Of a stretch of 64,000 bases of DNA, positions 4,382 to 26,411 are shown one piece after another (position 1 is the first letter of the stretch; each line of letters opens with the position of its first letter). This DNA comes from Candidatus Kuenenia stuttgartensis (GTDB lineage Bacteria; Planctomycetota; JAKEIC01; DYIT01). The translations under genes were made by a program, and so were the position numbers. The notes under the pieces were generated by a model that had not been told where the DNA came from, did not search any database, and was given only the letters and a program-made list of their open reading frames with translations. The stretch spans positions 14,560-78,559 of the forward strand of contig DYIT01000004.1 in assembly GCA_020723505.1 (NCBI GenBank), read 5' to 3'.

Positions 4382-4645
4382 CACGCCGGCCCCTCGGATC
4401 TCAAAGCCGTGCGAACTCGTCTCGGTGCATGGCGCGCAAATCGTGCGGGCCGTGCCTGCGTTCCAGAATCCCTCTGGGAAATCGCCGTGCCCCCGGAAGC
4501 TTTCCAGGAATCGAACCAAGCGCGAAAAAATCCTGGCGAAAAAGCTTCCGGCTGGAGAAAATGTTTTCCTGAAACGGCACCGCCGGCGCAGGAATGATCC
4601 GGCCGCCGTCCGGAGGTGCATGTGCCCGGCAAGATCGACAGGTCA

Positions 4646-5506: not shown

Positions 5507-5654
5507 TTCCTCGCCCTTGACAGCGCTGCCCGACTCTGTTGTAATATAGCCGCGTTCGGAGTCCGGTTGCCGGACCTGGACGATATTCCGTCGGCCCATG
5601 GAAGTCCGACGGCCCTTTTCGACGGCCTTTCGCTTTCGCGGAAGGGGGGGATTG

Positions 5655-6782: not shown

Positions 6783-6821
6783 ATTCCACACGAAGCATCG
6801 GCCAGGCGCTTCGCGTGGAAT
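6783..6821 (+). terminator. Long stem-loop overlapping the HEAT gene stop; terminator-like but without a T-tract
   Basis: ATTCCACACGAAGC-N11-GCTTCGCGTGGAAT forms a 14-bp stem with one A.C mismatch. The stem sequence CCACACGAAGC recurs in the hairpin at 29396-29431. Confidence 0.4.
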
Positions 6822-6931
6822 CCATTAATACTCCTTCGTGAATTATCCGGGGCAAATCACGGCGGAAACCCCCGAAACTTATGCGGGAACGGAGTGTTAC
6901 TATATTTGACGCCTTTTCTGGGGATTAGGGA

Positions 6932-10299: not shown

Positions 10300-12743
10300 G
10301 CGGGGAACACGGAGCCCGCCCCGGCCCGTGCGGACCTGCGGCCGGGCCGGTCCTGGCCCTTGCCGCGGGTGCGGCCGGTTTCGAAGCCCAGGTCCTCCAG
10401 CTCGTTCTCATGCGCGAGCTCCTCACCTTCTTCTCCGGGCTTGAGATCGTAATCGGCGCGACGCTCAGCGTCTGGATGGCGTTCACAGCCGCCGGCGCGT
10501 TTGCCGCGGGCAGGATTCCCGCCCGGAACCCGGCCGCCAGGCTCGTGATTGCCCTTTCGGCGGCCGGCGTCTGGACCGCCGTGGCGCTCGCGGCAATCCG
10601 CGTAAGCCGCGGCCTCCTCGGCATCGAGTCAGGCGAGGAGCCGTCGCTGCCCGCGTCGGTCCTGCTCTCCATGATTGCTGCAGGCCCGTCCGCGGCGTTT
10701 CTCGGCGCGGCTTTTCCCGCGGCAGCCGCGCTCCTGTCCGGATTGGGCAGATTCGCCCCGGGCAGGGCTTTCCTGTACGAGGCCGCCGGAGGGGCGTTTG
10801 CAGGAGCGGTTTTCACGTTCGTCATGGCCCATCTCCTGAATCCGTTCCAGTCGGCCTTCCTGGCCTCGGGCCTTGCGCTGACGGCAGCCGCAGCCGCCGC
10901 GGGCCGCTCGTTCAGGCTCGGAGGCGCGGCCGCCGCGCTGTTCGGCTTCCTTCTGGCAGTCGCCGGCCCCCTGGACCGTGCCACGGAAAAGGCGCGCTGG
11001 CGCGACTGGAACGAGGGGTACTCCATGGAGGAGACCGCGGACTCGAAGTACGGCAGGATTTCAGTGCTCCGGTATCGGGACCAGACAAGCTTCTTCGAAT
11101 CGGGCCATCTCGCGTTCTCCATCCCGGACATGGAGTCCGGAGCGGAACTGGCGGGCATGGTGATGGTCCAGCACAGGAAGCCCGGATGCGTGCTCGCAAT
11201 CGGGGGGGGAATCTCGGGTCTCGCGCGTGAAATCCTCAGGTTCCCGGTCGAGTCCCTGGACGTAGTCGAGCTGGACCCGAAGCTCGTGGAACTCGCGATG
11301 CGGCGCCTCCCGGCCGAAGAACGGGGAATCTTCTACAAGCCGGGCGTGCGCATGCACTACGCGGACGGCAGGCTGTTCGTGAAGCGGAGCGACCCTGAAT
11401 CCTTCGACCTCGTGCTGATCTGCCTGCCTGATCCGTCCACCGCGTCGCTGAACAGGTTCTACACCAGGGAGTTCTTCGAGGAGGTCGGACTGGCCCTCCG
11501 GCCCGGCGGCGTGTGCGCGTTCACGCTCTCATCGGCGGAGAACTACCTCGGGTCCGAGCTTCTCCTGCGGAACGGGACCGAATACCACACGTTCCTGTCG
11601 GTTTTCCCGCACGTGCGGGTGGTGCCGGGCGACCCGGCGATATTCCTGGGATCGCGGGATCCGTCGTACCTGAGCCTGGACCCGGACGTGCTCGCAGACA
11701 GGCTCCTCGAGAGGAGGCCGGAGCTGGCCGGAGAAGGCGGGGAAGGCAGGCACGGCTGGTTCAGCCCGCACCATTACCACATGAGGCTCGGCTCCGGCGA
11801 CCCCGCCGAAGTCAACAGGCAGCTCCGGACCTGGCCTGCGCCGGGGTCCGCAGGCGAACCGGAAGGAGGCGGCCCGAGACCACTGCCGTCCTTCCTTTCG
11901 GGCGGCCGGGACGGGAAGGACCCATGGGACGAGGACGTCCCGGAGGCGGAGAGGACGCTCAATTCCGACCAGAGGCCGGGCGCCTCGCTTGCGACCCTGC
12001 TCGTATGGGCCCGGAAGATGGGGCATCCGCTGCTCGCGGACGCGCTCCGCGGGCTGTCGTCCCTGCCGGTGGCGTTCCTCGCCCTCCCGGGACTGCTCCT
12101 CCTGGTTCCCGCCCTGGCGCTCCGCGCCGCCGGAAGGCCGGGGGGCGCGGCCGGATGGTCGGCTGCCTCGGCCGTGTTCGCCGTGGGGCTCGCGGAGATG
12201 GTCTTCGAGCTCTCGGTGCTGTACTCGTTCCAGGGATACTACGGGTACGTCTACGGCGAGATGGGGTTCCTGTTCGCGGTCTTCATGGCCGGTCTGGCGT
12301 CGGGATCATGGGTTTCCGGCAGGTGGTTCGCAGAGAGGGGGAGGCCGGCGTTCGTTCCGGCGCTGCTCCTCTGCTGCATCGCCGGATCCGTCTGCCTGCC
12401 CTGGGCCCTGGCAGCCGCCGGATCGGCCGGGAGCCCCGCGATAGTGCTCTCGATTTTTTCCCTGCTCACGTTCCTCTCGGGCCTGCCGGTCGGGCTCCTG
12501 TTCCCCCATGCCTCGGCCTCGGGTGAAGGGGGCCTCGGCAGGGCCTCCTCGCTGTACGCGGCGGATCTCGCTGGCGGCATCGCCGGGGCGCTGGCCGCCG
12601 CGCCGCTTCTGATTCCCTGCGCAGGGCTCTCCGCCACGCTGCGGGTTTTCGTCCCGGCGATCCTGGCGGCGGCGCTGATTGCGCACCTGGCATCGGCATG
12701 CCGGACGCCTGGACGAGAGATTCAACCACCCCCGCCCCTGTAG
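10257..12743 (+). CDS. Polytopic membrane protein fused to a spermidine synthase-like (aminopropyltransferase-fold) domain
   Basis: Central VLAIGGGISGLAREILRFP.ESLDVVELDPKLVELA...ADGRLFV...FDLVLICLPDPSTASLNRFYTREFF matches the SpeE fold. Hydrophobic multi-helix regions lie on both sides. The alternative GTG start at 10296 gives a GTGA overlap with the radical SAM stop. Confidence 0.75.
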   Translation: MPEMRGKGAGRVVVSGEHGARPGPCGPAAGPVLALAAGAAGFEAQVLQLVLMRELLTFFSGLEIVIGATLSVWMAFTAAGAFAAGRIPARNPAARLVIALSAAGVWTAVALAAIRVSRGLLGIESGEEPSLPASVLLSMIAAGPSAAFLGAAFPAAAALLSGLGRFAPGRAFLYEAAGGAFAGAVFTFVMAHLLNPFQSAFLASGLALTAAAAAAGRSFRLGGAAAALFGFLLAVAGPLDRATEKARWRDWNEGYSMEETADSKYGRISVLRYRDQTSFFESGHLAFSIPDMESGAELAGMVMVQHRKPGCVLAIGGGISGLAREILRFPVESLDVVELDPKLVELAMRRLPAEERGIFYKPGVRMHYADGRLFVKRSDPESFDLVLICLPDPSTASLNRFYTREFFEEVGLALRPGGVCAFTLSSAENYLGSELLLRNGTEYHTFLSVFPHVRVVPGDPAIFLGSRDPSYLSLDPDVLADRLLERRPELAGEGGEGRHGWFSPHHYHMRLGSGDPAEVNRQLRTWPAPGSAGEPEGGGPRPLPSFLSGGRDGKDPWDEDVPEAERTLNSDQRPGASLATLLVWARKMGHPLLADALRGLSSLPVAFLALPGLLLLVPALALRAAGRPGGAAGWSAASAVFAVGLAEMVFELSVLYSFQGYYGYVYGEMGFLFAVFMAGLASGSWVSGRWFAERGRPAFVPALLLCCIAGSVCLPWALAAAGSAGSPAIVLSIFSLLTFLSGLPVGLLFPHASASGEGGLGRASSLYAADLAGGIAGALAAAPLLIPCAGLSATLRVFVPAILAAALIAHLASACRTPGREIQPPPPL

Positions 12744-12864
12744 CCACGGCGCTCCGCTGTAGCCACGGCACTCCGCTGCCGTGGTCGCCCCGGCCCGCCT
12801 TCGCTTCGTATTCAAATGGAGTTCTATCCTGCGAACGCCCGGATGGAAGGAGCTGCCGCGTCGC

Positions 12865-12872
12865 TGTATAAT
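12865..12872 (+). promoter_or_regulatory. Extended -10 element TGTATAAT upstream of corA
   Basis: Exact TGTATAAT 57 nt upstream of ATG 12929. A GGAGG Shine-Dalgarno lies at 12917-12921. There is no good -35. Confidence 0.45.
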
Positions 12873-12928
12873 CCCCTGGCTTGAATCCCTGCCTGGTTCC
12901 GGCTCGTCCGGGTTATGGAGGCTTTCCC

Positions 12929-14008
12929 ATGGATTGGGAGGAGATATTCTCGAGGCGGCCGCCGCCGGGCACGCCGCCCGGCACAATCAGGTTCAACCCT
13001 GCGGCGCCGGAATCGTCGGTCAGCGTCGTGTCCTACGGCCCCTCGGAAATCGAGGAGAGGAGGATTGCAGCGGAGGACGAGGTCCGTCCCTTCCTCGGGA
13101 GAAGACCCGTCACATGGGTCAACGTCGAGGGGCTGGGAAGCAGGCAGATTATAACCGGCCTGATGGAAGCATTCAGGATACACGGCCTCGCGATGGAGGA
13201 CGTGCTCGACTTGAGCCAGCGCACGAAGGTAGAGCACTACAAGGAATACGTCTTTTTCATAGCGGATTTCGTTTCGGCCGGGGGCGGGATTGCGATTGAG
13301 CAGTTCAGCATGTTTCTCGGAAAGGATTTCGTTCTCACGTTCCTCGAGAAGCCGGGGAAATGGCTCGAACCGGTACTGGAGCGCGTGAGGCAGGGCAAGG
13401 GATCCCTTCGTTCCGCCGGGCCCGACCACCTCGCCTACGCCCTGCTCGACGCCCTCGTGGACAACTACTACCCGGTGCTCGAATCATGCAGCGAGAAGCT
13501 GGACGAAATCGAGGAGGAGCTCCTGGGCGGCTGCGGGAAGGGAACGCTCGGAAGGATGCACAGGATAAAACAGGACCTGAGGACGCTCCGGAGGACGGCG
13601 TGGCCCATGAGGGAAGCCCTGAACACGCTCCTTCGCGACTCGTCGCCGCTCATTTCCGAGGATACCCGCCTTTACCTCAGGGACTGCGCCGATCACGCGG
13701 TGCAGATTATTGATCTGGTCGAGCTCTACAGGGAACTCACGGCCGACCTCGTTGACCTGCACTACTCAAACATATCGAACCGGACGAACGACGTGATGAA
13801 GGTGCTCACGATAATCGCGACCATCTTCATCCCATTGAGCTTCGTCGCGGGAGTCTACGGGATGAATTTCAACACCGAGGCTTCCTGCCTCAACATGCCC
13901 GAGCTCAACTGGGCTTTCGGCTATCCCTTCGCGCTCGGCATAATGGCCTCGATCGCGCTCACGCTGCTGGCATTCTTCTGGCGAAGGGGCTGGATTGGCA
14001 AATCCTGA
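12929..14008 (+). CDS. corA: CorA-family magnesium/cobalt transporter
   Basis: Signature YGMNF before two C-terminal TM helices (VYGMNFNTE...GYPFALGIMASIALTLLAFFW). Start at MDWEEIF is chosen because the upstream ATG 12881 sits only ~10 nt from the -10 element. Confidence 0.85.
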   Translation: MDWEEIFSRRPPPGTPPGTIRFNPAAPESSVSVVSYGPSEIEERRIAAEDEVRPFLGRRPVTWVNVEGLGSRQIITGLMEAFRIHGLAMEDVLDLSQRTKVEHYKEYVFFIADFVSAGGGIAIEQFSMFLGKDFVLTFLEKPGKWLEPVLERVRQGKGSLRSAGPDHLAYALLDALVDNYYPVLESCSEKLDEIEEELLGGCGKGTLGRMHRIKQDLRTLRRTAWPMREALNTLLRDSSPLISEDTRLYLRDCADHAVQIIDLVELYRELTADLVDLHYSNISNRTNDVMKVLTIIATIFIPLSFVAGVYGMNFNTEASCLNMPELNWAFGYPFALGIMASIALTLLAFFWRRGWIGKS

Positions 14009-14054: not shown

Positions 14055-14081
14055 TTTTTCACCCGCCTTGCGGGTGAAAAA
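14055..14081. terminator. Bidirectional intrinsic terminator between the convergent corA and rimK-like genes
   Basis: TTTTT-CACCCGC-CTT-GCGGGTG-AAAAA. A 7-bp GC stem flanked by a T5 run and an A5 run. It overlaps the last codons of the rimK-like ORF. Confidence 0.6.
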
Positions 14082-14916
14082 TGGAGAGCCCGAGCTCGGC
14101 GATTTGCTCGGCCAGGCGGACGCCCGTCGCCGCCTCGATTCCCTTGAGCCCGGGGGAGGCGTTCACTTCGAGGAGATACAGGGTTCCGCGGTGTTCCAGG
14201 AAATCCACTCCCGCGACGGAGAGGTCGAGCATGCGGGCGACGGCCTCGGCCGGGGCAGCCCATGGCCCGCCGGCAGGAAGAGCCTCGGCTCCCGCTCCTC
14301 GGTGTATGTTTGCCCGGAAATCGCCTTTCGCGGGCTTCCTGGACATGGCGGCGGCCGACTTGCCGCCGATTACGAAGACCCTGACGTCCTTGCCGCCCTC
14401 GAGGTACGGCTGCACGAGCGCGTCCTCTCCGAACGCCGAAAGAGCGGAAACGTAGGCTGCGGCGGATGCCCGGTCATGCACCACCGCTGCGCCTATACCC
14501 TGGGTACCGACGTCGGGCTTGATTACGACGGGGAAACCGAAACGCTCCGCCTCGCGAGCGGTCGATTTCCCGCCAGAGGCGAGCGCCGATGGAACGGGGA
14601 CCACGCCCGCGGGCAGCGGGCCCAGCAGCACGGATGACTTCCTCCTGCACTTCCTGACGCCTTTCGGGTCCTGCATGCTCGCGCATCCCCGCGCGACGAG
14701 CGCCTCGAGGAAGGCGAAGGATCTGGCAAAGAACCTGCTCCCCAGACGGGGGACCAGGAGGTCGAAAGGCGGAGGCCCCGCTTCGATGCCCTGCAGGAGC
14801 GGTTCCCTCGCGGGGTCGATGACCGTCACCGCCGAGCCGAGGGCCTCGAAGGCCGCCTTGAGCCTAGACGTCGAATGAAAGGATTCATCGCTGGAAAGTA
14901 TTGCTGTTCCGGGCAT
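14059..14916 (-). CDS. RimK-family ATP-grasp ligase (alpha-L-glutamate ligase-like)
   Basis: ATP-grasp blocks FPVVIKPDVGTQGIG, VQPYLEGGKDVRVFVIGG, GDFRANIHRGA and DFLE..GTLYLLEVNASPGLKGIE. Start taken at MPGTAILSS (family-typical N-terminus). The ORF extends to ATG 14961, 4 nt from the upstream stop. Confidence 0.75.
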   Translation of the reverse strand: MPGTAILSSDESFHSTSRLKAAFEALGSAVTVIDPAREPLLQGIEAGPPPFDLLVPRLGSRFFARSFAFLEALVARGCASMQDPKGVRKCRRKSSVLLGPLPAGVVPVPSALASGGKSTAREAERFGFPVVIKPDVGTQGIGAAVVHDRASAAAYVSALSAFGEDALVQPYLEGGKDVRVFVIGGKSAAAMSRKPAKGDFRANIHRGAGAEALPAGGPWAAPAEAVARMLDLSVAGVDFLEHRGTLYLLEVNASPGLKGIEAATGVRLAEQIAELGLSIFHPQGG

Positions 14917-14965
14917 GGCAGAATCGCGTCTCCTCCACGTTTCCTTCCGAACCCCGGACATGACA

Positions 14966-17482
14966 TCAGGATTTCAGTCCTTGCTTGTCCAGTAGTAGTT
15001 CCTCGAATACAGCGTACAAGCTTTCGTAGACGGGCCGGCTTTCTTCAGTAGGTTCCGAGTAGCAGTGCCCCATCACTTCGCGAGAGAGCCGGCAGGAATC
15101 AATCAAGACCACGACCCGGCCCAATCCTTCGTCCTTCCAGACGCAACGAAAATTCTTGTCCGGGAGGTCGAACGACTTCCCGCCTTCGATACCGCCCATC
15201 GCGACCGGTTTGATTTCGATTTCATAAGGCTCCAGAATAACGGTGCCTGCTGAGATACTCGCAAGACCGGTGCAATCAACCAGAAGCAGTTTCCCGCCTT
15301 CGCGCACGAAATTCCAAATAATCTCATACTCCTCGGATTCAAAGGCGCGCACTGGATTAATCAGGAGCAGGATGTCAGCTTCCTTCACGGCCCTTTTTAT
15401 TGAATGTTTAATCGAGGGAATGCAACCGAGGCGTTGTAGAGTTACGAAGGGTGTGTCAAAAGCTCTCTTTAGGGGGATTCCGGGTGATCCGACTGCCCCG
15501 GGGAATCCGGCCTCGCATTTGCCACTTAGAAACACCACTCTCGGCCTCTTTACGAACGGCTCCGGAAGGCGATAGTTACGCCGGTTCACCTCCGAAACAA
15601 TGAAAAGCCCGGCTAGACAGCCCACGAAAGCCGCAGGAAGCCCCGCAGCATAAAGCGTGGAGGGTCCCCTCTTCCAGTGAGAAAGAAGCACAGTAGCGAG
15701 ACCTATCGCCCCGGTCAGTAAAAAAACAACGTTCAAGGCATACCCAAAGACGTTCCTCTGATTAAGGTAGTTCATGAACCCCAGAAGAAGGCGGTAGTGA
15801 TCATGCCTGAATAGTGCAAAGGTTGAAAAAACAGTCTCATCCCCCCACACGACGACCCGGCCTTTCCCGACCTTTGTCGCAGCACCGACCATCAAAGTGC
15901 CAAACCGGGAATTCAAATCAGGCCGGAATTCTCCAAAGTTGCTGGGATTCGCCACGTCTTTCCAGTCAGAATAGCAGTTATTCGTGAGGGCTACCGTCTC
16001 ACTCAGGATAGGAGCCTCGACTGAGCAGGACGTCATGAGCTCGAAGGGCTTCTCGACTCGACAAGCTGCAGGATGAAACCCTAGAGGTCCTTCATCGAAA
16101 AGCGTATAGCCCCCGGTGGTGAGCCCGCTCAGCGCGTCGGGCCTGAACCTGAGTCCGAACCGATCCACGAGACGGTTAGAGTTCGTAGTCATCCCCATGA
16201 GGTCGTTGTGGTCGGAAAGTACCAGGAGCCCTCCTCCGCGGCGGACGAAATCCTCCACGGCATTAATTTCCCCATCTTTCAGAGGAATCGTTGGTGTCTT
16301 GACGATCAGGACATCGTGGTCTTCCAGCAGCTCCGGCGTGAAATCCCCTTTCTCGTGAATGTTCACGACATAATATGAGGTGAGCAAGGAAACAGCGTTC
16401 GAGTAGCTGTAAGCCGCGAGGTCGCCATACCAATTCTTGTCGAACTTCTTTGAGACCTGTTCCCAGTAGTCGCTATGGCTGCCGTCCACGAGAATTCGCC
16501 CCTGTTTTTGCTTTCCAGGGTCGTGAAACGTAAGACCTGCCAGAATCAGGAATACCGAGCCTAAGATTGCCGCGGGGAGGCGAAGCGGAACCTGCCTGTA
16601 GATCTGCAAGGATTCGCGGCTTGTTGAGAACGCCCCTCGGAGGTCCAGGGGCAAGAACTTGCCGAGTATCAGGGCAAGCGGCAGGAACGTGGCGATGAGG
16701 AACCATGGATCCCAGAAAACCTCCATCGGAGGCGGAATCGAGTGGTCCTTATCCACATTGGGGAAGTCGGCATATATCGCGAGGACGATAATGAAGCGGA
16801 AGAACGAAAAAGCGAGCAATACCGTCATGAAGAACAGGAACCGCCGCATCCGACTTCCAAAAGCTCCTGCCAGGAACAGAACTAGACCAGCGAAGGCGAA
16901 GCAGGTCATCGGTAAAAAAGCGATCTTGCCCGTGCTGACCACAACGGGAAGGAGGGTTGAAGAACCCTCAAGGTAGGCAGTACCGCCGGAGACGGCGCAG
17001 TCATAACCGAGAATTCTCATCGTCCAGCAGACTGGCCATGAGAGGGCCGTGAAAAATTGTGTCCTTGGTTCAAGGTGCCGGAAGAGAGCACGGAGGACGA
17101 GTTGACCCGGGAAAATCGACAGGAAGACTAACACCGCTGAGAAGGAGATCATCAAAGCTGCTTTCATGCCTGATGCAATCCTGCTGATGCGAGTAAGCGA
17201 AGGCGAAGGTGTCCTATCCACGTGTTGTTCCTGGCGGGTCATCCAGGCAACGAGCAAAAATCCGGAAACGATGAAAGCGATACCCCACCCCCACCCGTGG
17301 TTGCCGTAGTTTCCCAACAGAAATGGCCATGAAAAGGACGCAGTTAGGACCCCGACCCAGATACCGTACCCACGTATCGAGGTCGTCCGAGTAGTCGGGC
17401 TGTCCTCTCCATCTGCAAGGACTCGGCGTGCGCTCTCTATTCCCGATGGCTCGTTTCCGACGCTAATCTGATTATCCCCCAT
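14966..17482 (-). CDS. Polytopic membrane protein (838 aa) with two alpha/beta 'GG.LL.L.DH' modules (GldG/DUF4350/GATase1-like by eye); paralogue of the next gene
   Basis: About 9 N-terminal hydrophobic helices, then module 1 (DVLIVKTP...EINAVEDFVRRGGGLLVLSDHNDL ... GKGRVVVWGDETVF). More helices follow, then module 2 (ADILLLINP...EIIWNFVREGGKLLLVDCTG ... GLGRVVVLIDSCRL). GC is in the mid-50s %, lower than the core. Confidence 0.7.
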   Translation of the reverse strand: MGDNQISVGNEPSGIESARRVLADGEDSPTTRTTSIRGYGIWVGVLTASFSWPFLLGNYGNHGWGWGIAFIVSGFLLVAWMTRQEQHVDRTPSPSLTRISRIASGMKAALMISFSAVLVFLSIFPGQLVLRALFRHLEPRTQFFTALSWPVCWTMRILGYDCAVSGGTAYLEGSSTLLPVVVSTGKIAFLPMTCFAFAGLVLFLAGAFGSRMRRFLFFMTVLLAFSFFRFIIVLAIYADFPNVDKDHSIPPPMEVFWDPWFLIATFLPLALILGKFLPLDLRGAFSTSRESLQIYRQVPLRLPAAILGSVFLILAGLTFHDPGKQKQGRILVDGSHSDYWEQVSKKFDKNWYGDLAAYSYSNAVSLLTSYYVVNIHEKGDFTPELLEDHDVLIVKTPTIPLKDGEINAVEDFVRRGGGLLVLSDHNDLMGMTTNSNRLVDRFGLRFRPDALSGLTTGGYTLFDEGPLGFHPAACRVEKPFELMTSCSVEAPILSETVALTNNCYSDWKDVANPSNFGEFRPDLNSRFGTLMVGAATKVGKGRVVVWGDETVFSTFALFRHDHYRLLLGFMNYLNQRNVFGYALNVVFLLTGAIGLATVLLSHWKRGPSTLYAAGLPAAFVGCLAGLFIVSEVNRRNYRLPEPFVKRPRVVFLSGKCEAGFPGAVGSPGIPLKRAFDTPFVTLQRLGCIPSIKHSIKRAVKEADILLLINPVRAFESEEYEIIWNFVREGGKLLLVDCTGLASISAGTVILEPYEIEIKPVAMGGIEGGKSFDLPDKNFRCVWKDEGLGRVVVLIDSCRLSREVMGHCYSEPTEESRPVYESLYAVFEELLLDKQGLKS

Positions 17483-17487
17483 TCGCC

Positions 17488-19980
17488 TTATCCTTTCCCT
17501 CTCAACTGCTTCATGCGCGTAAGCATGTTACGGATGAAAGTGATGTTCCCGAGGTGCCACGCCACCATGCTCTCAACATTCCTGTTTGTAAAAAAGCGGC
17601 TATCCGACACAAACAGCATGCCTCCCTTCCCGTACTCCCGGTAAGTTGCGAGCAAATCCCCTTTGGAAACGAAGAATCTGTGAACGGCGCCGGGCGCGAG
17701 ATCTCCTTTGCTAGAGGGAGCCGGCTCGCGCACAATGATGGGCCATGCATCCATGAACTCGGGGTCCATGGGTTTCTTGTCCTTGTAGTACGTGTTCGGT
17801 GCCCGTCCGAGTGACCGGCCTTCAATGTCCAACCCAATGGCCTCAAGGAGCCGCTGTGATCCCTCCCTTTCCTCGTACCCGACGCTTAGAATGACCTGGC
17901 CTCCCTTAGCCATATAGTCCGTGATTAGATCGACCTCGTGGCATTGAATCGTTTTGAGGGGAGAAAGGATGACCAGGAGTTCAGCCTCGGATATGCTCTT
18001 CCGGTCGAAACAATTCAGAGAAACCGGAATGAACGCATTCCGTTCCAGATTAAGGTACAGGGCGCCTATTCCCCTTCCCTCGTCTCCGCCCCGGGAGGCC
18101 CAGGGGATGTGGTAGTAGTCAATTGCGGCCAGAGGGCCGGCGATAGCAGGGCCGCTCATCCGCTCCTTCGAGATTACGTCGGAAACCGGTCCGGAAAGCG
18201 CGAGGAAGAATGGGAAGATCAACGCAAGCAGCCTGGAGCCGCCGGACGCGCCCAAGGTGGTCGTCAGCAGAATCACCCAGACCAGGAATGCCAGCGGCTT
18301 AAGCCAGTACCAGCGCCCGTACACCGTTTCGCAGGAAAGCCATGTAAAGACGTTGTGCAGGAAGGGGGTGTATATGGAAGTTACAGACCCGTTCTGAAAT
18401 GATGTCGTATCTCCGAAAACCAGCACTTTCCCCCTCCCGTAGAAGGCCGCCGCGAGCAGGCACATGTCCCCCAGCTTTTCCCCATGCTCGTAGGAGTAAT
18501 TCCCGAGAAGGGATCCGCCAACGTTGTAAGGATTGCCTCCGTCCGAGAAGGAGAGCGGCCCCCATATTATGGAAATCGCAGGCGGGCCGATGGTTAGAGA
18601 TGCGCCGACGTCTATCCCTGTCTCATCCCGCGATCGCGCGCCTGCCAAAACCGGATGCCGTGCGAAAGACTGGCAGTAACTCCAGCCTCCGCGGCACGGG
18701 AACGCGGAGTCGAATTCGAACCGAACGTTGATTCTGTCGAGAAGTTCGTTGTAGGTGTCCTGGAGCCCGAAGACGTTCGTGTGGTCGCCCAGGATGAGCA
18801 AAGCCCCGCCCCTTTCCACGAACCCCCAGATTGCCCGGATCTCCCCCTCCTCCCACCGACGCCCCAGGTTGATTATGGCGAAGATGTCAGTCTCTTCAAG
18901 TTGTTCGGGCTTGAGGCGTTCGGCGTCGAGTTTCGAGACCCGGAACCCGTCCAGTTCCAGGAAGGCGGGAAGATGTCCAAACATGCCTCCCGAGTACGAG
19001 CCGTACTTTCCTAAGACTGCGGTGTCCCAGTCTAGATAGCCCTTATTCCAGAACATAATCCGATTTCTTCGAGGGGACAGGATTTCCCATGATTGCATCT
19101 GAAAGAGCGTAATCGGGACAAACGCGGCAAGCGCAACTAAGCCGACTACCCTACTGCGACTCGAGAATAGTGCAGAAGGGATCCTCTCCTTCGCGGGAAA
19201 AAGCATGGAGAGCCCGGCCAATGGCATGAGCAGTACCGGAAAAAGCCATCGGACCGAATTGGCAAGCACACCCGCCTCTTGTGGAAAGACGGTCGACGAG
19301 CTCTGGATGACCAGGAAGGCCGTCCAAGCCCCGAAGACCACTATCAGAGCTGCCGATAAAACCCGCCATGCAAAAATTCGGAAGGCAGCGGTCCCAATCA
19401 AGTAGACAATCGCAAACAGAAGCACCCAGAGACCGGAAACGGATGGACCGATTGTAATCTCGGCATTGATTAATATGCGTCCAAGCAGACCTGTGTACTC
19501 GTTGCTGAAAACTTCGAAGAAATTGTAGACAATCGGAACGGTTTCCAGGGCGAACCCCAGCGCCCACGCGAAGTACGAAAGAAGGCGCAAAGGACCGGCG
19601 CATAACGCCGGGCGTCCCCAAATAGCCGATGCCCTTCCGAACCCCCAGAGAAAGACGATAAGTAAGCCAAGGACATAGAGCCGGTCGGTCGAGAGGAAGA
19701 GAAGAAAGCCAGGGAATGCCATTGAGAGATAGGGAAGAAGCGCGTTTCGACGGAAGATAGCTTCACGTTTCGAAGGAGCCTGGAAGAGAAGAAGTCCTGC
19801 AAGGAGAAGGGCGATAAACAAGCGGCCGTTTAAAGGGCTCAGGATGCCGAAAGTGCCCCATGCTATGAGAAGTATCAGGAGAAACGTGGAATGGATGACA
19901 AGGTTCCTTGCGACTTCGGAAACCCGCAGGTTGGTGATTTTCCCCCTCAATCTCCCGAGAATGGATTCACCTGCGCTCAT
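17488..19980 (-). CDS. Polytopic membrane protein (~830 aa), paralogue of 14966..17482 with the same two-module layout
   Basis: Module 1: DIFAIINLGRRWEEGEIRAIWGFVERGGALLILGDHTNV ... GRGKVLVFGDTTSF. Module 2: AELLVILSPLK...DLITDYMAKGGQVILSVGYEE ... GKGGMLFVSDSRFF. Start at MSAGES (ATG 19980, preceded by GGAGAAG) is preferred; the ORF track extends to 20055. Confidence 0.7.
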   Translation of the reverse strand: MSAGESILGRLRGKITNLRVSEVARNLVIHSTFLLILLIAWGTFGILSPLNGRLFIALLLAGLLLFQAPSKREAIFRRNALLPYLSMAFPGFLLFLSTDRLYVLGLLIVFLWGFGRASAIWGRPALCAGPLRLLSYFAWALGFALETVPIVYNFFEVFSNEYTGLLGRILINAEITIGPSVSGLWVLLFAIVYLIGTAAFRIFAWRVLSAALIVVFGAWTAFLVIQSSSTVFPQEAGVLANSVRWLFPVLLMPLAGLSMLFPAKERIPSALFSSRSRVVGLVALAAFVPITLFQMQSWEILSPRRNRIMFWNKGYLDWDTAVLGKYGSYSGGMFGHLPAFLELDGFRVSKLDAERLKPEQLEETDIFAIINLGRRWEEGEIRAIWGFVERGGALLILGDHTNVFGLQDTYNELLDRINVRFEFDSAFPCRGGWSYCQSFARHPVLAGARSRDETGIDVGASLTIGPPAISIIWGPLSFSDGGNPYNVGGSLLGNYSYEHGEKLGDMCLLAAAFYGRGKVLVFGDTTSFQNGSVTSIYTPFLHNVFTWLSCETVYGRWYWLKPLAFLVWVILLTTTLGASGGSRLLALIFPFFLALSGPVSDVISKERMSGPAIAGPLAAIDYYHIPWASRGGDEGRGIGALYLNLERNAFIPVSLNCFDRKSISEAELLVILSPLKTIQCHEVDLITDYMAKGGQVILSVGYEEREGSQRLLEAIGLDIEGRSLGRAPNTYYKDKKPMDPEFMDAWPIIVREPAPSSKGDLAPGAVHRFFVSKGDLLATYREYGKGGMLFVSDSRFFTNRNVESMVAWHLGNITFIRNMLTRMKQLRGKG

Positions 19981-22585
19981 CTTTCTCTTCTCCAGGCGCT
20001 GGCCCATGTTCCGGAGCAAGCAAGACTCGCAACGCTGCCGCGTTTCCCCGGACAAGGTTCAAGGGCCCCGCCTCTCCCGGGCTGAAACCCCTTGCCTCCG
20101 CGCGAAAAGTATACGTCCCCTGCTTAAGAAGTAATGAGACCTTGCCGTCTTCGCCGGCGATGGGATTGATGAGCCTCCTCTCCTTTCCTCCAGCCGTGAA
20201 GGCATGCAGTGAAGCTCCAGGAATCGGTTTGCCCTTGTCATCCAGGATCTCGGCCTCAACCTTCACGCCCATACCTAGGGAGAAGATTGCACTGAAGCCG
20301 TAATTGTTGTGCGAAACCTCTATCTCGTCGTTCACTTCCGGGGCGAGTTCATTACCCTGACCCACGAGCATGTACTTGCCCGGGTCGAGGTACTTGAAGG
20401 CGCCGAACGCCTTTGCCTCGAAGTCCTTGAATCTAGCCGTGCTGTGGATCGCCCAGGCGGGACTTCCCGGCGGTATATGATAGAGGACGACTTCCACGCT
20501 TCTGCCTGCGAGACTGCATCCCTCGCTCCTTACCTCGATGTTGATTTCCCCTCTCGGCAGGCTGATGTCTGCAACCAAGTGCCCGACCTTATCCTTGACT
20601 TCGATGTATTTGCGGTAAGTATCGCCTCGGCGTCTTACTTCGAGAGTGTACTTCCCGGGGCGGACTGTCTTGTATATGTAGCGCCCTTCCTTCATCTCAG
20701 CTTTCTGAGCAAATCGGGCGGTACGGTCCCATGGGTAGAGGAGGAAAATCTCGGCATCCTGAACCGGGAGCCCGCCGTAAATCAAGTTGCCTTCCAGAGA
20801 AGGGCTTAACCCGTACATCTTGTCGTTGAACTCAAGCTGTGAGCTCATTTCGTTATCAAGAATAAACCCGGTAACGGGATGCCTTTCCATTCCCTTGAGG
20901 GCACACAGGGAAGTGAGGTAGGAGAAGCCTGGATTTACACCCGTGAGATTGAAATTGCCATTACCGTCGGGGAAGGTGATACGGAAGAAGCCCTCCTCGT
21001 CATAGACGACTAAAGGCTCGAACTTGCAAAGAGCTTTCCCTGAAATACGCCCCCCTTTGGAGAGTTGGATGACGAGAGGTTCCGATGGTTTCTCTCCTTC
21101 CTTCCCTTTCTCCGTGCTCGGTCCAATCGAGACGAACCTCGTGGTTGCGTAGTCCGGGTGAACTACGAGAAAAAAGGATGGGTATGCCGGGACGCGGTCG
21201 AAGCAGAATCGGCCTCCAGCATCCGTCGCGGTCCAGCGCCGAATTACGGCGCCCCCTATATTCTGGACTATCGAACCAAGAAGCTTCCCGGCACGGTTGG
21301 AAGGTTCCCAACAGACCATGGCGTCAGACAGCGGCTCTCCAGTATCCTGCGCATGAACATGGCCTTTGACCTTGCGGCCGGCATTGAACCTAAGATCCTC
21401 TGGGTTGACTCTGCCGTCGGAGATCAGACGAAACGGATAGTATAGGTCCGCAAAGGCCGGATTTTCGGACCGGATTAGGTAGTTGCCTGCCGGAAGCGCA
21501 GGCAGCTCTATCCTGCCATCGTCATCTGATTTCACGGGTAGTGAAAATGCATCTTCCGGAATGTTCGGGATTGCGATGCGGAAGGCGGATTTCCCGATGG
21601 GATTTTTCCCTTCGGTGTCGGAAGCCCTGATAGTCCCTGCATCGGCCTTTGGCATGTCAATCTTCACCCCCTGGGATCCGGAGATCACGTTTTCGACTAG
21701 GGAAATGAATTTTCCTTTATTAAAGAGAAGCAGTGTGTATGGTCCGCCGGGGAGGTGCTCGAATCGGAAGGAGCCGTCATTCGCGGGGTGAATGATGAAT
21801 CGGAAGGGCACGGCAGGGGTCAGTGCGACCAACTCAATGTCCTCTGGGGCCATGTCCGTACTCGTCCTGACTGATCCCTCTAACCAAGCTCCTTCTTCGA
21901 GGCGAATCTTAAGCTCCTTCAACAAGACGCCGGGTCTGATGACTGCGCCCTTGCATGCAGGGGCAAAACCCTGTGACCAGGCATAGACCTTGAACGCGCA
22001 AGGCGGAAGTTCCGTTTTGAAGGCACCGTCTTTTTCTGAGACTAATGAAGCGACAGATGGGGAGGGCGAGCTCCTCGACTCTGCTCGGGGCAGGCTTCCT
22101 GACGAGCTGTTCCCGCCATGCGGCCACCCGAAACCCGGAAGTCCTGAAACACCTGAGGCAATGTCTTGCATGGCGAGGACACCGTCTTTGACCAGTAAAA
22201 CCGGCTCCGGATTCCACACTCCGTTGAATGGAACGAAAAATATCCGACATCCTGAAATTGATTTGGCTGAAGGGTTGAGTACCAATCCTTCAATCAAGCC
22301 CCGGTTCCCAGGGACTTTTTCCAGGGTTTTCGACGCATCACGCTCTTTATCTCCAGCCTTGTCCGAATCGTGTTCTCCTTTCTTTTTATCATCCACGGAA
22401 TGCTGTGGGTCGTTCGGAAACCAAATTCGATCATCACGGCGCCCTGCTGATCCCCAGAGCAAGAACGCGGAGACAATCGGAACGGAGGCGATAAGACCCC
22501 AAGAGGCGATCGTTACTGAAACTCTCAGGGGCGGCCAAGAAGCCGCCCCTGAGAGGAAATCCCGCATTTTACCGAAGGCATTCAT
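19967..22585 (-). CDS. N-terminally membrane-anchored protein (872 aa) built of repeated CarboxypepD_reg-like beta-sandwich modules
   Basis: Single N-terminal TM (VTIASWGLIASVPIVSAFLLW). Recurrent 'PG.Y' strand motif: LPGGPYTLLLF, LPAGNYLIRSE, VRPGKYTLEVR, LDPGKYMLVGQ, LKQGTYTFRAE. ATGA overlap with the upstream gene at 22582-22585. Confidence 0.75.
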   Translation of the reverse strand: MNAFGKMRDFLSGAASWPPLRVSVTIASWGLIASVPIVSAFLLWGSAGRRDDRIWFPNDPQHSVDDKKKGEHDSDKAGDKERDASKTLEKVPGNRGLIEGLVLNPSAKSISGCRIFFVPFNGVWNPEPVLLVKDGVLAMQDIASGVSGLPGFGWPHGGNSSSGSLPRAESRSSPSPSVASLVSEKDGAFKTELPPCAFKVYAWSQGFAPACKGAVIRPGVLLKELKIRLEEGAWLEGSVRTSTDMAPEDIELVALTPAVPFRFIIHPANDGSFRFEHLPGGPYTLLLFNKGKFISLVENVISGSQGVKIDMPKADAGTIRASDTEGKNPIGKSAFRIAIPNIPEDAFSLPVKSDDDGRIELPALPAGNYLIRSENPAFADLYYPFRLISDGRVNPEDLRFNAGRKVKGHVHAQDTGEPLSDAMVCWEPSNRAGKLLGSIVQNIGGAVIRRWTATDAGGRFCFDRVPAYPSFFLVVHPDYATTRFVSIGPSTEKGKEGEKPSEPLVIQLSKGGRISGKALCKFEPLVVYDEEGFFRITFPDGNGNFNLTGVNPGFSYLTSLCALKGMERHPVTGFILDNEMSSQLEFNDKMYGLSPSLEGNLIYGGLPVQDAEIFLLYPWDRTARFAQKAEMKEGRYIYKTVRPGKYTLEVRRRGDTYRKYIEVKDKVGHLVADISLPRGEINIEVRSEGCSLAGRSVEVVLYHIPPGSPAWAIHSTARFKDFEAKAFGAFKYLDPGKYMLVGQGNELAPEVNDEIEVSHNNYGFSAIFSLGMGVKVEAEILDDKGKPIPGASLHAFTAGGKERRLINPIAGEDGKVSLLLKQGTYTFRAEARGFSPGEAGPLNLVRGNAAALRVLLAPEHGPAPGEEKDERR

Positions 22586-22725
22586 TTCCTTTTATCGCTC
22601 TTGTCGTTATTTGCAGGCGGAGGAGGCGGATCAGCGAAGAACTCCACGCCGGCGGAAATCGGGGAGAGGTTCCCCGCCGCATCCCGCGCCTGCGCATGGA
22701 TCGTGTGCCAGCCGGGCGACAGCGG
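22569..22725. repeat. Direct repeat copy A (~157 bp): 3' end of the Ig-repeat gene plus the first 6 codons of the 872-aa gene
   Basis: Aligns by hand with 26840-26988. The first ~120 nt differ at about 7 positions. The last ~30 nt are more diverged, with a 9-nt indel (ccagccggg present only in copy A). Confidence 0.85.
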
Positions 22726-24981
22726 TTTGACGACCTGGAAAGAGAACAACCCGCCCCCATCCGCAGGCGTCTCCCCTTCCGGATTTGCATCAATAAGGAT
22801 TGACACGATGCTCAGAGGCTCTGAGGTTCCCCTGATTATTGGGGTCTTTGTCGTCATCTCGCCGTTCACCGGCGATCTGATGAGGGGTGCCGCCGGAGGC
22901 ACAGTGTCTACTTTGAATACGATGGTCTCGGAGGTTGCAGTGTTTCCTGCGCCATCTGAGGCTACGGCGTAGACTGTGTGGAGACCCTCAGCCAAGGGGG
23001 CGGTCAGAGTGAATGAGAACACTCCGCCCGGTCCGGTAGTTGTGGTTCCGGCCAGGTTCTCGTCAACCACGATTGCGATTTCTGCGTCAGAGTCCGTGCC
23101 TGCGCCGGAAATTGTCGGCGTGCTGTCGTTTGTCAGTTCAATTGGGTTGAGAATCGGTGTCCCGATGAGCGTATCCACAGTGAATGAAACTGTTTTGGAT
23201 GCGGCCGTGTTTCCCGCAGCGTCAGTCGCCACGGCGTAGCCCGTGTGCAGACCGTCGCCAAGCGCAGTGGGTACCGTCATATTGAACCCGCCGCCTTCGT
23301 TTGCCGTGACCAAACCAACCAGATCGCCATCAACGTATACATGCACTAAAGCGCCCACATCTGTTCCTGAACCCACAACATCAGGTGTGTTGTCCGAGAT
23401 TACGCTCCCGTTGGCCGGACTCGTGATAATCGGCGTTCCAATCACGGTGTCAATAATAATATGCACATAGTTTGACGGTTCTGTGAATACTCCTTCCGGA
23501 CTCACGCCAATTGCAAAAATAACATGCTCACCATCCTGTAAAATAATTTCCGTTTCATATTCGAATTGTCCGCTTGGACATGATATTTCTTCAATCTCAA
23601 TGCTATCAATATAGAATTTGCAATTAAATCCAACTTCCACTGTTCCAATTATTTCTGGTTTACTATCATTTGATATCAGATAATCAGGAGGGGAAACAAT
23701 ATGTGGCGGAGAATATCCATGCTCTCTACCACATGTTCCACTCTCATCTGGGACTTTTTTTGTTTTCCTTACACTGCATCTAATAGCCTCACCACTTTGG
23801 TTATTGCCAATACTGCAGACTCCTTTTTTCTCTTCATTCAATAATGTGCAAATCCCTTTCCCAACATCCTCAACAGAACAAAATGCATTGTTCTTTTTTC
23901 CGACCTGATTCTCAGAAGGAGTAAATACTGAACATTGTCCAGTATTTGCTTCCTGCATAATGCTGCAGTTCGAAAAGTGCCCGGATCCGCCACCGTCCAT
24001 AACTGAGCAAAATGCATCAAATGCACCTTTTTCAATTGAACATCTTGCTTCTCCCGTTTGAGTGCTTTGCACACTGCATTTAGCTACCCCCATTCCTCCG
24101 CCATCAGAGTCAATAGCACTGCATTCTGGACTTCTTTCACCATCGAGTGGAGAATCATGAAAGACACTGCAACTAGAATTGTTACCGCTGTCATTGCTAA
24201 AAACTGAACAAAAAACCTCCTCCGTTTCTTTTTGTACAACCGAGCATTTCTGTTGTTCTCCGCGATCCATGAAAACGCTGCACATGTCGCTCGATCCAAT
24301 TCTAGTTCTCGATTTACCTACGCTGCAATTTGCTTTCCCACCTTCCCCTGCATTATCAACAGAACACCATTGATCTGATTCTTTTGACCAGCTTACGACC
24401 GAACAACCTGCTTGCCCTGCCGATTTAGTACTTTCTAGAACACTACAACTATTTCGATGAGGAGGTCCCTCTGTCGATCCCTCTTGTACGCTACAACTTG
24501 CCCTACCCGAATCAACCCATGCCGAGCAAAACGTATTCTCTTTGCTTGTATCGAATACCGAGCATGAACTTTTATTTGAGTTTCCATAAACTGAGCATCG
24601 TGCCTCTCCAATATCATTTTCACCAACAACAGAGCATTGCTTCCTATCTTCCGCTACAGAACAGTGCTGACTCTCCCCCGATGTTGAGCATCTTCCTCCA
24701 GCATATATATCGCAATCAACTGAACAATTTTTATCTGGCCGCGGGAGATGCTCTGTACTACATACAATATTTTGAATAGAAATAACACCGGATTCTGCAA
24801 TACCAAAAGGATTCTGGATTTTAATTTCATTTGATAAAATCCTAGAACCGATATTTTCACAATCCAGTTGGCCTAGATAATTATAGTTCAATTCAGCAAA
24901 ACAAACATCAACCTGAAAAGAAAGTAACGAAATTACAAGAACCAAACCGTATCTGATATTTCTATAGCTTGTGCTACTCAT
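22582..24981 (-). CDS. Secreted chimeric surface protein (799 aa): signal peptide, ~27 'C-S-V' repeat units, one AT-rich Ig-like module, then three GC-rich bacterial Ig-like repeats and a Pro/Lys tail
   Basis: Signal peptide MSSTSYRNIRYGLVLVISLLSFQVDVCFA. C-S-[VIA] units span residues 74-417. Three ~90-aa repeats end in ...GLHTGYAVATDAAGNTA / ...GLHTVYAVASDGAGNTA / ...GWHTIHAQARDAAGNLS. GC jumps from the mid-30s % to roughly 55-65% near 23450 inside the ORF. Confidence 0.8.
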   Translation of the reverse strand: MSSTSYRNIRYGLVLVISLLSFQVDVCFAELNYNYLGQLDCENIGSRILSNEIKIQNPFGIAESGVISIQNIVCSTEHLPRPDKNCSVDCDIYAGGRCSTSGESQHCSVAEDRKQCSVVGENDIGEARCSVYGNSNKSSCSVFDTSKENTFCSAWVDSGRASCSVQEGSTEGPPHRNSCSVLESTKSAGQAGCSVVSWSKESDQWCSVDNAGEGGKANCSVGKSRTRIGSSDMCSVFMDRGEQQKCSVVQKETEEVFCSVFSNDSGNNSSCSVFHDSPLDGERSPECSAIDSDGGGMGVAKCSVQSTQTGEARCSIEKGAFDAFCSVMDGGGSGHFSNCSIMQEANTGQCSVFTPSENQVGKKNNAFCSVEDVGKGICTLLNEEKKGVCSIGNNQSGEAIRCSVRKTKKVPDESGTCGREHGYSPPHIVSPPDYLISNDSKPEIIGTVEVGFNCKFYIDSIEIEEISCPSGQFEYETEIILQDGEHVIFAIGVSPEGVFTEPSNYVHIIIDTVIGTPIITSPANGSVISDNTPDVVGSGTDVGALVHVYVDGDLVGLVTANEGGGFNMTVPTALGDGLHTGYAVATDAAGNTAASKTVSFTVDTLIGTPILNPIELTNDSTPTISGAGTDSDAEIAIVVDENLAGTTTTGPGGVFSFTLTAPLAEGLHTVYAVASDGAGNTATSETIVFKVDTVPPAAPLIRSPVNGEMTTKTPIIRGTSEPLSIVSILIDANPEGETPADGGGLFSFQVVKPLSPGWHTIHAQARDAAGNLSPISAGVEFFADPPPPPANNDKSDKRK

Positions 24982-26411
24982 TTAGGACCCCCTTTTCCGA
25001 AAAAGTCCTCGAGAAACCCTTCAGCTGCTTCTTCAGGAGACAACCGCTTGATATATACTTTAGCTTCTATGTCTGGGCCATCTATAACTAACGTGTTATC
25101 AGCGCCAGGAAATACACTGATTAGCTTGTAATAGTCTGATTGAATTTTAAGCACATGTGTGCCGATTGGGACATTTGATACAATAGTATATCCGGCTGTA
25201 TTTGAGTTAAATTTAATCGGCGCAAACCTGTGCGACTTTTCAATCAACAGGAATTTAATTACATCAGAAAAGGGGGCACGGTTATCATCATTAATAAAAT
25301 GAATATTCAATTTATAAGCCTTTTCCAGAAGGAAATCAATTCTGTTAATATTCTGTTTATCATTTATTATAAAAGTAGTGGACATTTTCGCAAATCCTTC
25401 GCAACCAATAACCAAATCGTACTCTCCGAAAGGGACATTACGCAAAGAAAATGTACTCTCGGAGAAAACGCCGGATTTCCTTAAACTGTATATTTCATTG
25501 CAATTTGGCGAGATTGAGATAAGCTCATATGAGAATTCACATTTATCATGGTTGAAACAAGGGTTATTTATCTGAATCTGTAGCTCTGCAACCGATAAGA
25601 AAATATCGAACTTAACGGGCAGGTTATTAAAAACGACATTTCTTGAAAGTGTGACTGAATTTTCGTTAGGTAGAAATATATAAATATAATAATCCTCAAG
25701 AAGCATTCCAGGAAAGATATAAAAACCATCCGACATAGTAAGATAAGATTGGAAAAGTCTATGATTCTGATGCAATTCTATCCGTGCATTTTCAACTGGG
25801 ACGTAATGCTTATCATAGATAGTGCCATAAAGAGAATCATCGCCAATTAAGAAAAAGTCAGGGAGAACTAGATTCAGTCTCTTAACGTCATTTGGAAATA
25901 GAGAAATCTTTACTGATTTGTAAATCATACTATTTTCAGGAAGAAAAGCGATAATCGAAACAAAATGAGGTCTTGCAACCAAAGTCTGAATAGAATAGAA
26001 TGTGCCGTCTTCAGATGCAAAGAGAATCTTCTGCCTGGAACTGGGATTATTTACAATGATTTTTGCGTTTGAACATGGGGATCCATCTGCTTTTAGGACT
26101 TTGCCGAGCACCATGGCTTCATTAAATCTCAGATTCGATATATTTGTTTGGAAATCTGTCAATCTATTTTGACAAATCTGATTGTAAGATTGCTCTGATG
26201 AAACAGAATCAAAAAAGGTTTGATTTAATCCAACTGAATTCGCAGCATTTTGTGATAAGGAATAGCCAGCTAGGGTTATGGAATCACCTGCTTTTAAAAA
26301 ATGAATAAATAGAAAAATAGCAAATAAACAAATAAAAACTATTATAAAGAAGGAAAGATAAATAGATTTACAATTCCAATGGGAGTTCTTTATATTATCA
26401 TATTTAATCAT
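24978..26411 (-). CDS. N-terminally membrane-anchored protein (477 aa) with ~4 CarboxypepD_reg-like beta-sandwich modules; very AT-rich
   Basis: TM IYLSFFIIVFICLFAIFLFIHFL. Module starts such as GKVLKADGSPCSNAKIIVNN and GTIYDKHYVPVENARIELHQ. 'P.G.Y/H' strands NVPFGEYDLVIG and NVPIGTHVLKIQ. ATGA overlaps at both ends. About 32-35% GC. Confidence 0.7.
   Translation of the reverse strand: MIKYDNIKNSHWNCKSIYLSFFIIVFICLFAIFLFIHFLKAGDSITLAGYSLSQNAANSVGLNQTFFDSVSSEQSYNQICQNRLTDFQTNISNLRFNEAMVLGKVLKADGSPCSNAKIIVNNPSSRQKILFASEDGTFYSIQTLVARPHFVSIIAFLPENSMIYKSVKISLFPNDVKRLNLVLPDFFLIGDDSLYGTIYDKHYVPVENARIELHQNHRLFQSYLTMSDGFYIFPGMLLEDYYIYIFLPNENSVTLSRNVVFNNLPVKFDIFLSVAELQIQINNPCFNHDKCEFSYELISISPNCNEIYSLRKSGVFSESTFSLRNVPFGEYDLVIGCEGFAKMSTTFIINDKQNINRIDFLLEKAYKLNIHFINDDNRAPFSDVIKFLLIEKSHRFAPIKFNSNTAGYTIVSNVPIGTHVLKIQSDYYKLISVFPGADNTLVIDGPDIEAKVYIKRLSPEEAAEGFLEDFFGKGGPK

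Follow-up and report, generated by a model that had tools for sequence, protein, structure and literature searches.

A conserved two-gene module of paralogous membrane proteins with GIFT modules and a probably exosortase-like anchor on a low-GC island of Candidatus Kuenenia stuttgartensis

Two adjacent genes of Candidatus Kuenenia stuttgartensis encode proteins of nearly equal length, each of which combines many transmembrane (TM) helices with two alpha/beta modules. The genes lie in a 64,000-nucleotide stretch of contig DYIT01000004.1 (assembly GCA_020723505.1, positions 14,560 to 78,559 of the forward strand), which is the window analyzed here and whose numbering is used throughout. What such a pair of proteins does, whether it acts as one unit, and whether it serves the surface proteins encoded beside it are the questions that this locus raises. 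The two proteins, here called A and B, represent an uncharacterized, widely but patchily distributed two-gene module in which modules of the known GIFT fold are joined to an unannotated and probably exosortase-like membrane anchor. The best explanation of the whole, held with moderate confidence, is that B-A is an ancient, self-contained module whose products form an ATP-independent envelope platform (A·B), acquired by this genome on an island. A first-pass annotation of the window had described tandem paralogues that form a heterodimeric membrane platform; its observation is confirmed, and its interpretation is supported in part. The two genes and their parts are arranged as follows.

14966 to 17482, minus strand: A-type paralogue, 838 amino acids (aa) (open reading frame (ORF) and translation, with orthologue support).
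14969 to 15574, minus strand: module 2 of A, GIFT-like (second Pfam stretch; weak GldG match at residues 692-736; AlphaFold2 (AF2) model).
15575 to 15739, minus strand: two-helix TM hairpin of A (AF2 helices; positively charged connecting loop).
15740 to 16516, minus strand: module 1 of A, GIFT fold (Pfam; AF2; Foldseek match to IFT52).
16517 to 17482, minus strand: N-terminal polytopic domain of A (AF2 models; exosortase-like by hhalign; R229 98% conserved; no catalytic Cys or His).
17488 to 20007, minus strand: B-type paralogue, 839 aa in the public call (P0027; ORF and translation).
17491 to 18171, minus strand: module 2 of B, GIFT-like (Pfam IFT52_GIFT at residues 683-751; BLASTP alignment with module 2 of A).
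18172 to 18294, minus strand: two-helix TM hairpin of B (hydropathy).
18295 to 19092, minus strand: module 1 of B, GIFT/DUF4350 fold (Pfam DUF4350 at residues 364-558).
19090 to 20007, minus strand: N-terminal polytopic domain of B (hydropathy; no Pfam match; exosortase-like by hhalign; G-P-S/T-x-S-G motif; neither the Cys nor the Arg).

The limits of both genes depend on the choice of start codon. Three starts are candidates for B: 19980, 20007 (the public call), and 20055 (the first TTG, giving 855 aa). Position 19980, at which the first-pass annotation ended its span, stands as a possible start but not as the sole one. A spacer of 5 nucleotides (nt) separates the B stop codon from the A start in the window. 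The public gene call gives A only 627 aa, beginning at Met212, and most of the N-terminal polytopic domain (N-domain) is lost from it. The 838-aa reading frame is accepted here because it is backed by an 821-aa orthologue (P0007; 67% identity, 95% of the length) and because the N-domain is conserved family-wide.

A and B are paralogues with one common layout. Their BLASTP alignment covers 399 aa with 26% identity (E = 6e-25) and runs collinearly from module 1 through the TM hairpin into module 2. The common plan consists of an N-terminal polytopic domain of 7-8 helices, a first alpha/beta module (module 1), a two-helix hairpin, and a second module (module 2). An AF2 model of A, built with 18 homologues (predicted local distance difference test (pLDDT) 82.4; predicted template modeling score (pTM) 0.85), places the N-domain at residues 36-318, module 1 at 329-573, the hairpin helices at 582-601 and 607-636, and module 2 at 648-830; within the N-domain of this model, residues 145-180 form a short helix and a beta-meander of three strands. 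The hydropathy of B gives the same layout, with hairpin segments at 588-606 and 610-628. This is the layout that the first-pass annotation had proposed, and all six of the motifs that it quoted are found in the translations. Its helix counts require correction: the linker between the modules has two helices rather than about three, and the N-domain has 7-8 helices together with the short helix and beta-meander rather than about nine.

The two genes are found together in a wide range of genomes. Word-seeded searches returned 21 relatives of A and 18 of B, already separated into two orthologue groups, and B was followed directly by A in all six metagenome contexts fetched. In a scan of GTDB with one genome per species, relatives were confirmed at no fewer than 404 loci. 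Of the 80 loci that were retained, 69 carry B directly upstream of an A gene in the same orientation; the rest comprise eight that are cut by contig ends and three to five that encode A only. The stop codon of B and the start codon of A overlap by 4 nt in 33 of 74 pairs, and 60 of the 74 have a possible A start between -20 and +30 nt relative to the B stop. Pairwise identities among A proteins track those among B proteins (r = 0.855, a value reached by none of 500 permutations), and the closest relatives of both window proteins are encoded at one locus (L003). The B group is also distinct from A by hidden Markov model (HMM): the full-length B model scores about 450-1000 bits, versus about 150 for the full-length A model. 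Because gene order, overlap or spacing, correlated divergence, and the shared closest locus all agree, these sequence comparisons indicate that B-A is an ancient, co-inherited, and co-translated two-gene unit. From the pairing, the coupling, and the correlated divergence we infer, as their natural reading, a hetero-oligomer of A and B. Against an obligate pair stand the lone A genes found at three loci despite the presence of upstream sequence (L083, L091, and L096), and probably at two more (L060 and L090). A recent local tandem duplication is rejected as the origin of the pair, as the two proteins belong to separate, ancient orthologue groups at every locus.

Several loci depart from the usual form of the pair. 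Two A-only loci, L090 (2094-8742; a metagenome-assembled genome (MAG) of KSB1) and L091 (5008-11761; a Bacteroidetes MAG), have in common a trio of downstream ORFs of about 503-544, 374, and 410-417 aa, which may be an alternative partner set replacing B. The A-type ORF of L027 (4343-7843; a Methanobacteriota MAG) has 1166 aa, some 300 aa above the usual length, and may hold an extra C-terminal domain. Contig CAWAHD010000002.1 of an Isosphaeraceae MAG was recorded with three B-A copies (L029, L035, and L036); L029 and L036 overlap on the contig, so that two of the three pairs are about 12 kb apart, with CarboxypepD_reg ORFs nearby.

The extramembrane modules are the part of each protein with known relatives. 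Pfam matches A and B twice each with DUF4350, ABC_transp_aux, or IFT52_GIFT. For DUF4350 (PF14258, cut-off 30.4 bits) both proteins score above the cut-off (A 51.0 bits, B 39.4 bits); for ABC_transp_aux (PF09822, cut-off 34.7) A lies above at 51.4 bits and B below at 29.1; and for IFT52_GIFT (PF23355, cut-off 27.2) A lies above at 39.6 bits and B just below at 26.9. When the A model was compared with the PDB by Foldseek, only the modules were matched: the GIFT domain of IFT52 (5fmr) was retrieved with E = 5e-7 and a target-normalized template modeling score (TM-score) of 0.69, the luminal domain of OST48 (6s7t_G) with E = 1.5e-4, and further matches included S1P, STM3548, the middle domain of GH42, and ThuA-like proteins. 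IFT52 is also retrieved by sequence with the family profile (E = 1e-10). The modules have the GATase1-like GIFT fold (GldG/IFT52/OST48 type; a flavodoxin fold), as had been proposed at first pass. The Cys-His-Glu triad of class I glutamine amidotransferases is absent, again as stated there: the elbow reads G-D-H-T/N in the A and B families.

Proteins with this fold have been discussed before in both prokaryotes and eukaryotes. Makarova, Galperin, and Koonin (2015; PMC5898192) connected archaeal DUF4350 proteins of this fold with GldG. The DUF4350 proteins of arCOG01314, found in archaea and bacteria and predicted to form homomeric or heteromeric envelope complexes, have a signal peptide and one C-terminal TM helix, and together with arCOG02884 they are predicted components of a secretion or membrane-remodeling complex (PMC5898192). 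A and B have the GldG-like ectodomain in common with these proteins; the pair differs in having two copies of this domain per protein, a polytopic anchor fused to them, and a paralogue as companion. IFT52 and OST48 are scaffold subunits of eukaryotes with the same fold as the modules of the pair, and IFT52 also shares a GG...N...D motif with them.

The N-domain, in contrast to the modules, lacks annotation. Pfam and NCBIfam give no match to it (for Pfam, at E values of up to 10 when the B N-domains were searched and of up to 1 when the full proteins were). A profile search with the B N-domain returned 481 matches among 1.84 billion representatives. The full-length proteins among the 150 of these matches listed are nearly all about 780-900 aa long (a few exceed 1,000 aa), so that the domain looks family-specific and always fused; no exosortase-like bridging sequence stood out among the same 150. 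The N-domain of A modeled alone (AF2 with 77 sequences; pLDDT 82.8, pTM 0.78) has no relative in the PDB by Foldseek, the best match having E = 0.16 and no TM-score exceeding 0.26.

Profile comparison gives the N-domain a weak, reproducible similarity to exosortases. Using hhalign, 106 A and 84 B N-domains were compared with 38 exosortase domains (PF09721; the exosortase/archaeosortase family, EpsH/XrtA/ArtA) from genomes of the same phylum, and remote similarity extends over 98-215 columns. The A match spans 98 columns with P = 4.4e-4 and lengthens to 215 columns when the alignment is relaxed; the B match spans 131 columns with P = 7e-4, and the smaller alignment used first gave P = 2.2e-4. 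The controls give P = 0.1-0.36 for reversed profiles, 0.47-0.85 for ABC2_membrane_2 (PF12679), and 0.09-0.14 for Wzy_C (PF04932, O-antigen ligase). The real score was reached by none of 150 block-shuffled exosortase decoys (A 33.9 versus 19.1 ± 3.5; B 30.9 versus 14.8 ± 2.4), and all comparisons of N-domain and exosortase give one register. In this register the “lG...eG” periplasmic loop of exosortases aligns with the “lG.da..sG” loop of A, and the “CSG” motif that precedes a TM helix aligns with “G-P-S/T-x-S-G” in B and “t.EkLG” in A. The invariant exosortase Arg in the next helix aligns with R229 of A (98% conserved) and is missing in B, whose alignment contains an invariant Gly. The first-pass annotation had found the N-domain unlike ABC-2 permeases, O-antigen ligases, and exosortases; this holds for the first two and not for the third.

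The catalytic residues of exosortases are not retained. In the exosortase alignment the reference Cys, Arg, and His are 94%, 100%, and 97% conserved, respectively, whereas no column of the A N-domain has 15% Cys or more, the B N-domain has a single unrelated column with 18%, and no conserved His aligns in either. The N-domain cannot be a cysteine transpeptidase because both the catalytic Cys and the catalytic His are absent. It differs from exosortases also in its want of a Pfam match and in its fusion to GIFT modules, and the operon of the pair contains no PEP-CTERM or PGF-CTERM clients. Judged by these profiles, the N-domain is probably a remote, catalytically dead relative of the exosortase fold rather than a member of the family. 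Three observations weigh against this relationship: the HH probabilities of the exosortase match are only 26-45%, the PDB contains no exosortase-like fold that the N-domain model matches, and a canonical exosortase is missing from nine of ten pair-bearing genomes. A six-frame search of the window's own genome likewise found no PF09721, and since these genomes lack the canonical enzyme, no link of the pair to an exosortase pathway is apparent. The same low HH probabilities, the missing Cys and His, the lack of Pfam or NCBIfam matches, and the scarcity of exosortases in pair-bearing genomes would suit a different explanation, in which the N-domain would represent a novel membrane fold with no kinship to exosortases, its profile similarity being convergent or a compositional artifact. 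That explanation deserves consideration as the less likely of the two, because A and B each align to exosortase independently and in the same register, because their scores lie 4-7 standard deviations above the shuffled decoys and the matches stand well above the reversed, ABC-2, and Wzy controls, and because the Arg and the conserved Gly-Gly motifs of the loop fall at matching positions.

The distribution of charge indicates how the proteins are oriented in the membrane. Across the A family, loops 89-100, 206-215, 277-300, and the hairpin loop 600-610 are net positive (charge +0.9 to +2.3; +1.9 for the hairpin loop), whereas loops 57-63, 128-188, and 240-258 are neutral to acidic. The hairpin loop is predicted to be cytoplasmic because it is positively charged, and by the positive-inside rule this pattern would have both modules facing outward.

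Conservation within module 1 bears on whether the outward-facing modules are purely structural. It was measured across bacterial and archaeal sequences, 84 of A and 72 of B. The conserved residues of A are D424-H425-N426, N436, D449, H470, S485-C486, and D548-E-T550; those invariant in B are D424-H425-T426, D449, D505, and D549-T550. H425, in the strand-turn-helix elbow G-D424-H425-T/N, is 100% conserved in both paralogues, and the elbow (D424, T426), N436, D449, H470 of A (H467 of B), S485 of A (S486 of B), and D548/549-x-T550 are conserved at 81-100% in both. C486 is conserved in A only and is positioned away from the elbow. By the secondary structure of the AF2 model, these polar residues lie at strand C-termini and at the nucleophile-elbow position. 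Strand C-termini are the usual ligand site in such folds. Given the conserved Asp-His-Thr elbow and polar residues in both first modules, the first-pass designation of these folds as non-catalytic is not established and, on sequence grounds, appears unproven.

Such conservation raises the prospect that module 1 is a true enzyme, a His-centered hydrolase or transferase acting on an envelope glycan or a lipid-linked polymer, and that the pair is a membrane-bound enzyme complex. The invariance of the His and its companion residues across archaea and bacteria, their location in the modeled fold, and the presence of SEGG at the elbow of the non-enzymatic IFT52 where the pair has GDHT (IFT52 having only the structural N and D in common with it, and none of the other conserved polar residues) speak for this proposal. 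It is nevertheless doubtful: there is no match to a characterized catalytic family, the Foldseek neighbors are non-catalytic domains, and GIFT domains are usually seen as modules for binding or scaffolding (PMC5898192).

The favored reading, a self-contained A·B platform, accommodates these features as follows. A and B would be paralogous proteins of the cytoplasmic membrane that work as an A·B hetero-oligomer. Each would be anchored by its family-specific domain of 7-8 helices, remotely related to exosortases and archaeosortases and lacking their catalytic Cys and His, and each would carry two GIFT modules on the extracytoplasmic face, tied together by the TM hairpin. The complex would operate as an envelope platform without ATP: the membrane domains may hold a membrane-embedded partner (e.g., a lipid-linked polymer or a C-terminal protein anchor), and the four outer modules may bind or process it. 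The ligand that we infer for A·B, and any catalysis, would be accommodated in a predicted pocket formed by the Asp-His-Thr elbow and the conserved Asp, His, Ser, and Asp-x-Thr of module 1. A bolder version of this scheme is speculative and unlikely: B-A would be the core of an undescribed ATP-independent envelope machine of Archaea and Bacteria, in which dead exosortase-like domains capture a membrane-embedded substrate (a C-terminal protein anchor or a polyprenol-linked polymer) and pass it to the four GIFT modules, where the His-centered pocket modifies or assembles it.

The conserved order and translational coupling suggest a basic, unnamed envelope function that extends from Methanothrix and Thermoplasmatota to Planctomycetota, Thermodesulfobacteriota, Chloroflexota, Bacillota, and Alphaproteobacteria. 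The pair would place bacterial and archaeal GIFT domains outside the context of the gliding ABC transporter, and the exosortase superfamily may extend to non-catalytic members. Cultured carriers open the pair to genetics, with the invariant His as an immediate mutational target; isolates with the pair include Sagittula salina M10.9X and Polyangium sp. y55x31. Among the named sources of loci with relatives, the bacterial MAGs include Planctomycetota, Thermodesulfobacteriota, Blastocatellia, Chloroflexota, Bacillota, Bacteroidota, Alphaproteobacteria, Krumholzibacteriota, and Latescibacterota, and the archaea include Methanothrix, Thermoplasmatota, and Methanobacteriota.

Within the phylum of the window the pair is rare. 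Five of the 41 genomes sampled contain it, in each case as two matches side by side, and none of those from the same family or order does. In the window the pair forms the end of a tight minus-strand operon that runs from 26411 to 14966 in the order P0005, P0004, P0003, B, A. The upstream genes are the following.

19967 to 22585, minus strand: P0003, 872 aa, an N-terminally anchored CarboxypepD_reg (transthyretin-like) repeat protein (hydropathy and Pfam).
22582 to 26411, minus strand: P0004 (799 aa; Cys-Ser-Val repeats and Ig-like domains) and P0005 (477 aa; CarboxypepD_reg), the lower-GC tier of the island (Pfam).

The operon has a GC content of 0.34-0.56 and a GC content at third codon positions (GC3) of 0.31-0.67, whereas the flanking rimK-like, corA, and dnaJ genes have values of 0.60-0.69 and 0.77-0.84, respectively. 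A, B, and P0003 form one tier with GC3 of 0.61-0.67; a second tier, richer in AT, comprises P0004 and P0005. Because its composition differs from that of the flanking genes, the operon block is regarded as a foreign low-GC island, and its composition together with the patchy distribution in the phylum argues for horizontal acquisition of the pair. In the favored reading the module would have reached this genome by horizontal transfer on that island, along with the transthyretin-repeat surface protein P0003. The stretch is present only in its source DNA metagenome (subsurface), and RNA evidence for it was not found. For DnaJ, the best named relative is encoded by a Planctomycetota MAG (55% identity), which places the stretch only tentatively in Planctomycetota/PVC.

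The tight operon also invites the view, taken in the first-pass annotation, that A and B serve to export or anchor the co-encoded surface proteins of 872 and 799 aa, as a platform dedicated to them. The 3' end of P0003 overlaps the start of B, the GC3 of A, B, and P0003 matches, the closest related pair (L003) has a P0003 homologue immediately upstream, and two CarboxypepD_reg proteins lie upstream of the pair at the P0036 locus. The neighbors, however, are not conserved. For P0004 and P0005, which belong to the other GC tier, no homologue occurs close to any of 85 pairs; for P0003, L003 and L004 alone have one. Nine of the 85 pairs, most of them from Planctomycetota, have CarboxypepD_reg ORFs nearby, and in five such an ORF adjoins the pair directly. 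BLAST clustering of the flanking ORFs of the 85 loci yielded no common partner family, and none emerged when Pfam families were counted among 38 upstream and 31 downstream neighbors on the same strand. A platform dedicated to these surface proteins is thus improbable. Of the first-pass proposal the heteromeric pair remains plausible, given the conserved order, coupling, and correlated divergence, while the specificity for the neighboring proteins does not survive the comparison of loci. Within the self-contained platform, P0003 may be a lineage-specific client, and the pair could depend on a P0003-type protein in this sub-lineage; in general the pair would be independent of such neighbors.

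The best-known relative in architecture is GldG (TIGR03521; ABC_transp_aux), the auxiliary subunit of the GldAFG gliding-motility ABC transporter, which like the pair has two extracytoplasmic GIFT/GATase1-like modules held by TM helices and which shares a Pfam family with it. In contrast to GldG, the pair has no GldA or GldF partner, carries a large N-terminal polytopic domain, has its two modules split by a TM hairpin, and is an obligate pair of paralogues. That A and B act as GldG does for GldA and GldF, as auxiliary subunits of an ABC-2 exporter whose genes lie elsewhere, is very improbable despite the ABC_transp_aux score of A, the weak TIGR03521 match, and the TM-flanked GIFT modules, because A scores just 17.2 bits and B has no match at all against a TIGR03521 equivalog cut-off of 389.85, no ABC-2 permease or ATPase gene (GldF/GldA) occurs in the window operon, ABC_tran occurs in one of the 38 upstream neighbors and is absent from the families listed for the 31 downstream ones, and each protein has a polytopic domain of its own unrelated to ABC2_membrane_2. 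A role as ABC transporter accessory was rejected as the principal explanation on account of the sub-cut-off TIGR03521 score and the lack of ABC genes in the operon.

Other features of the neighborhood concern individual genes. P0004 (22582-24981) contains about 25 short Cys-Ser-Val units followed by three Ig-like domains of the Big_13/Ca_tandemer type. On the other side of the pair, a gene for a RimK-family ATP-grasp protein (14059-14961) starts 5 nt past the A stop codon and has a host-like GC3 of 0.77. It probably marks the boundary of the island insertion rather than a functional partner, and its inclusion in the unit was rejected on account of this GC3 and the absence of ATP-grasp from the downstream families tallied. 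At locus L026 (a metagenome contig), TadE/Tad pseudopilin-like genes lie on both sides of the pair (4351-6866 and 12355-13143).

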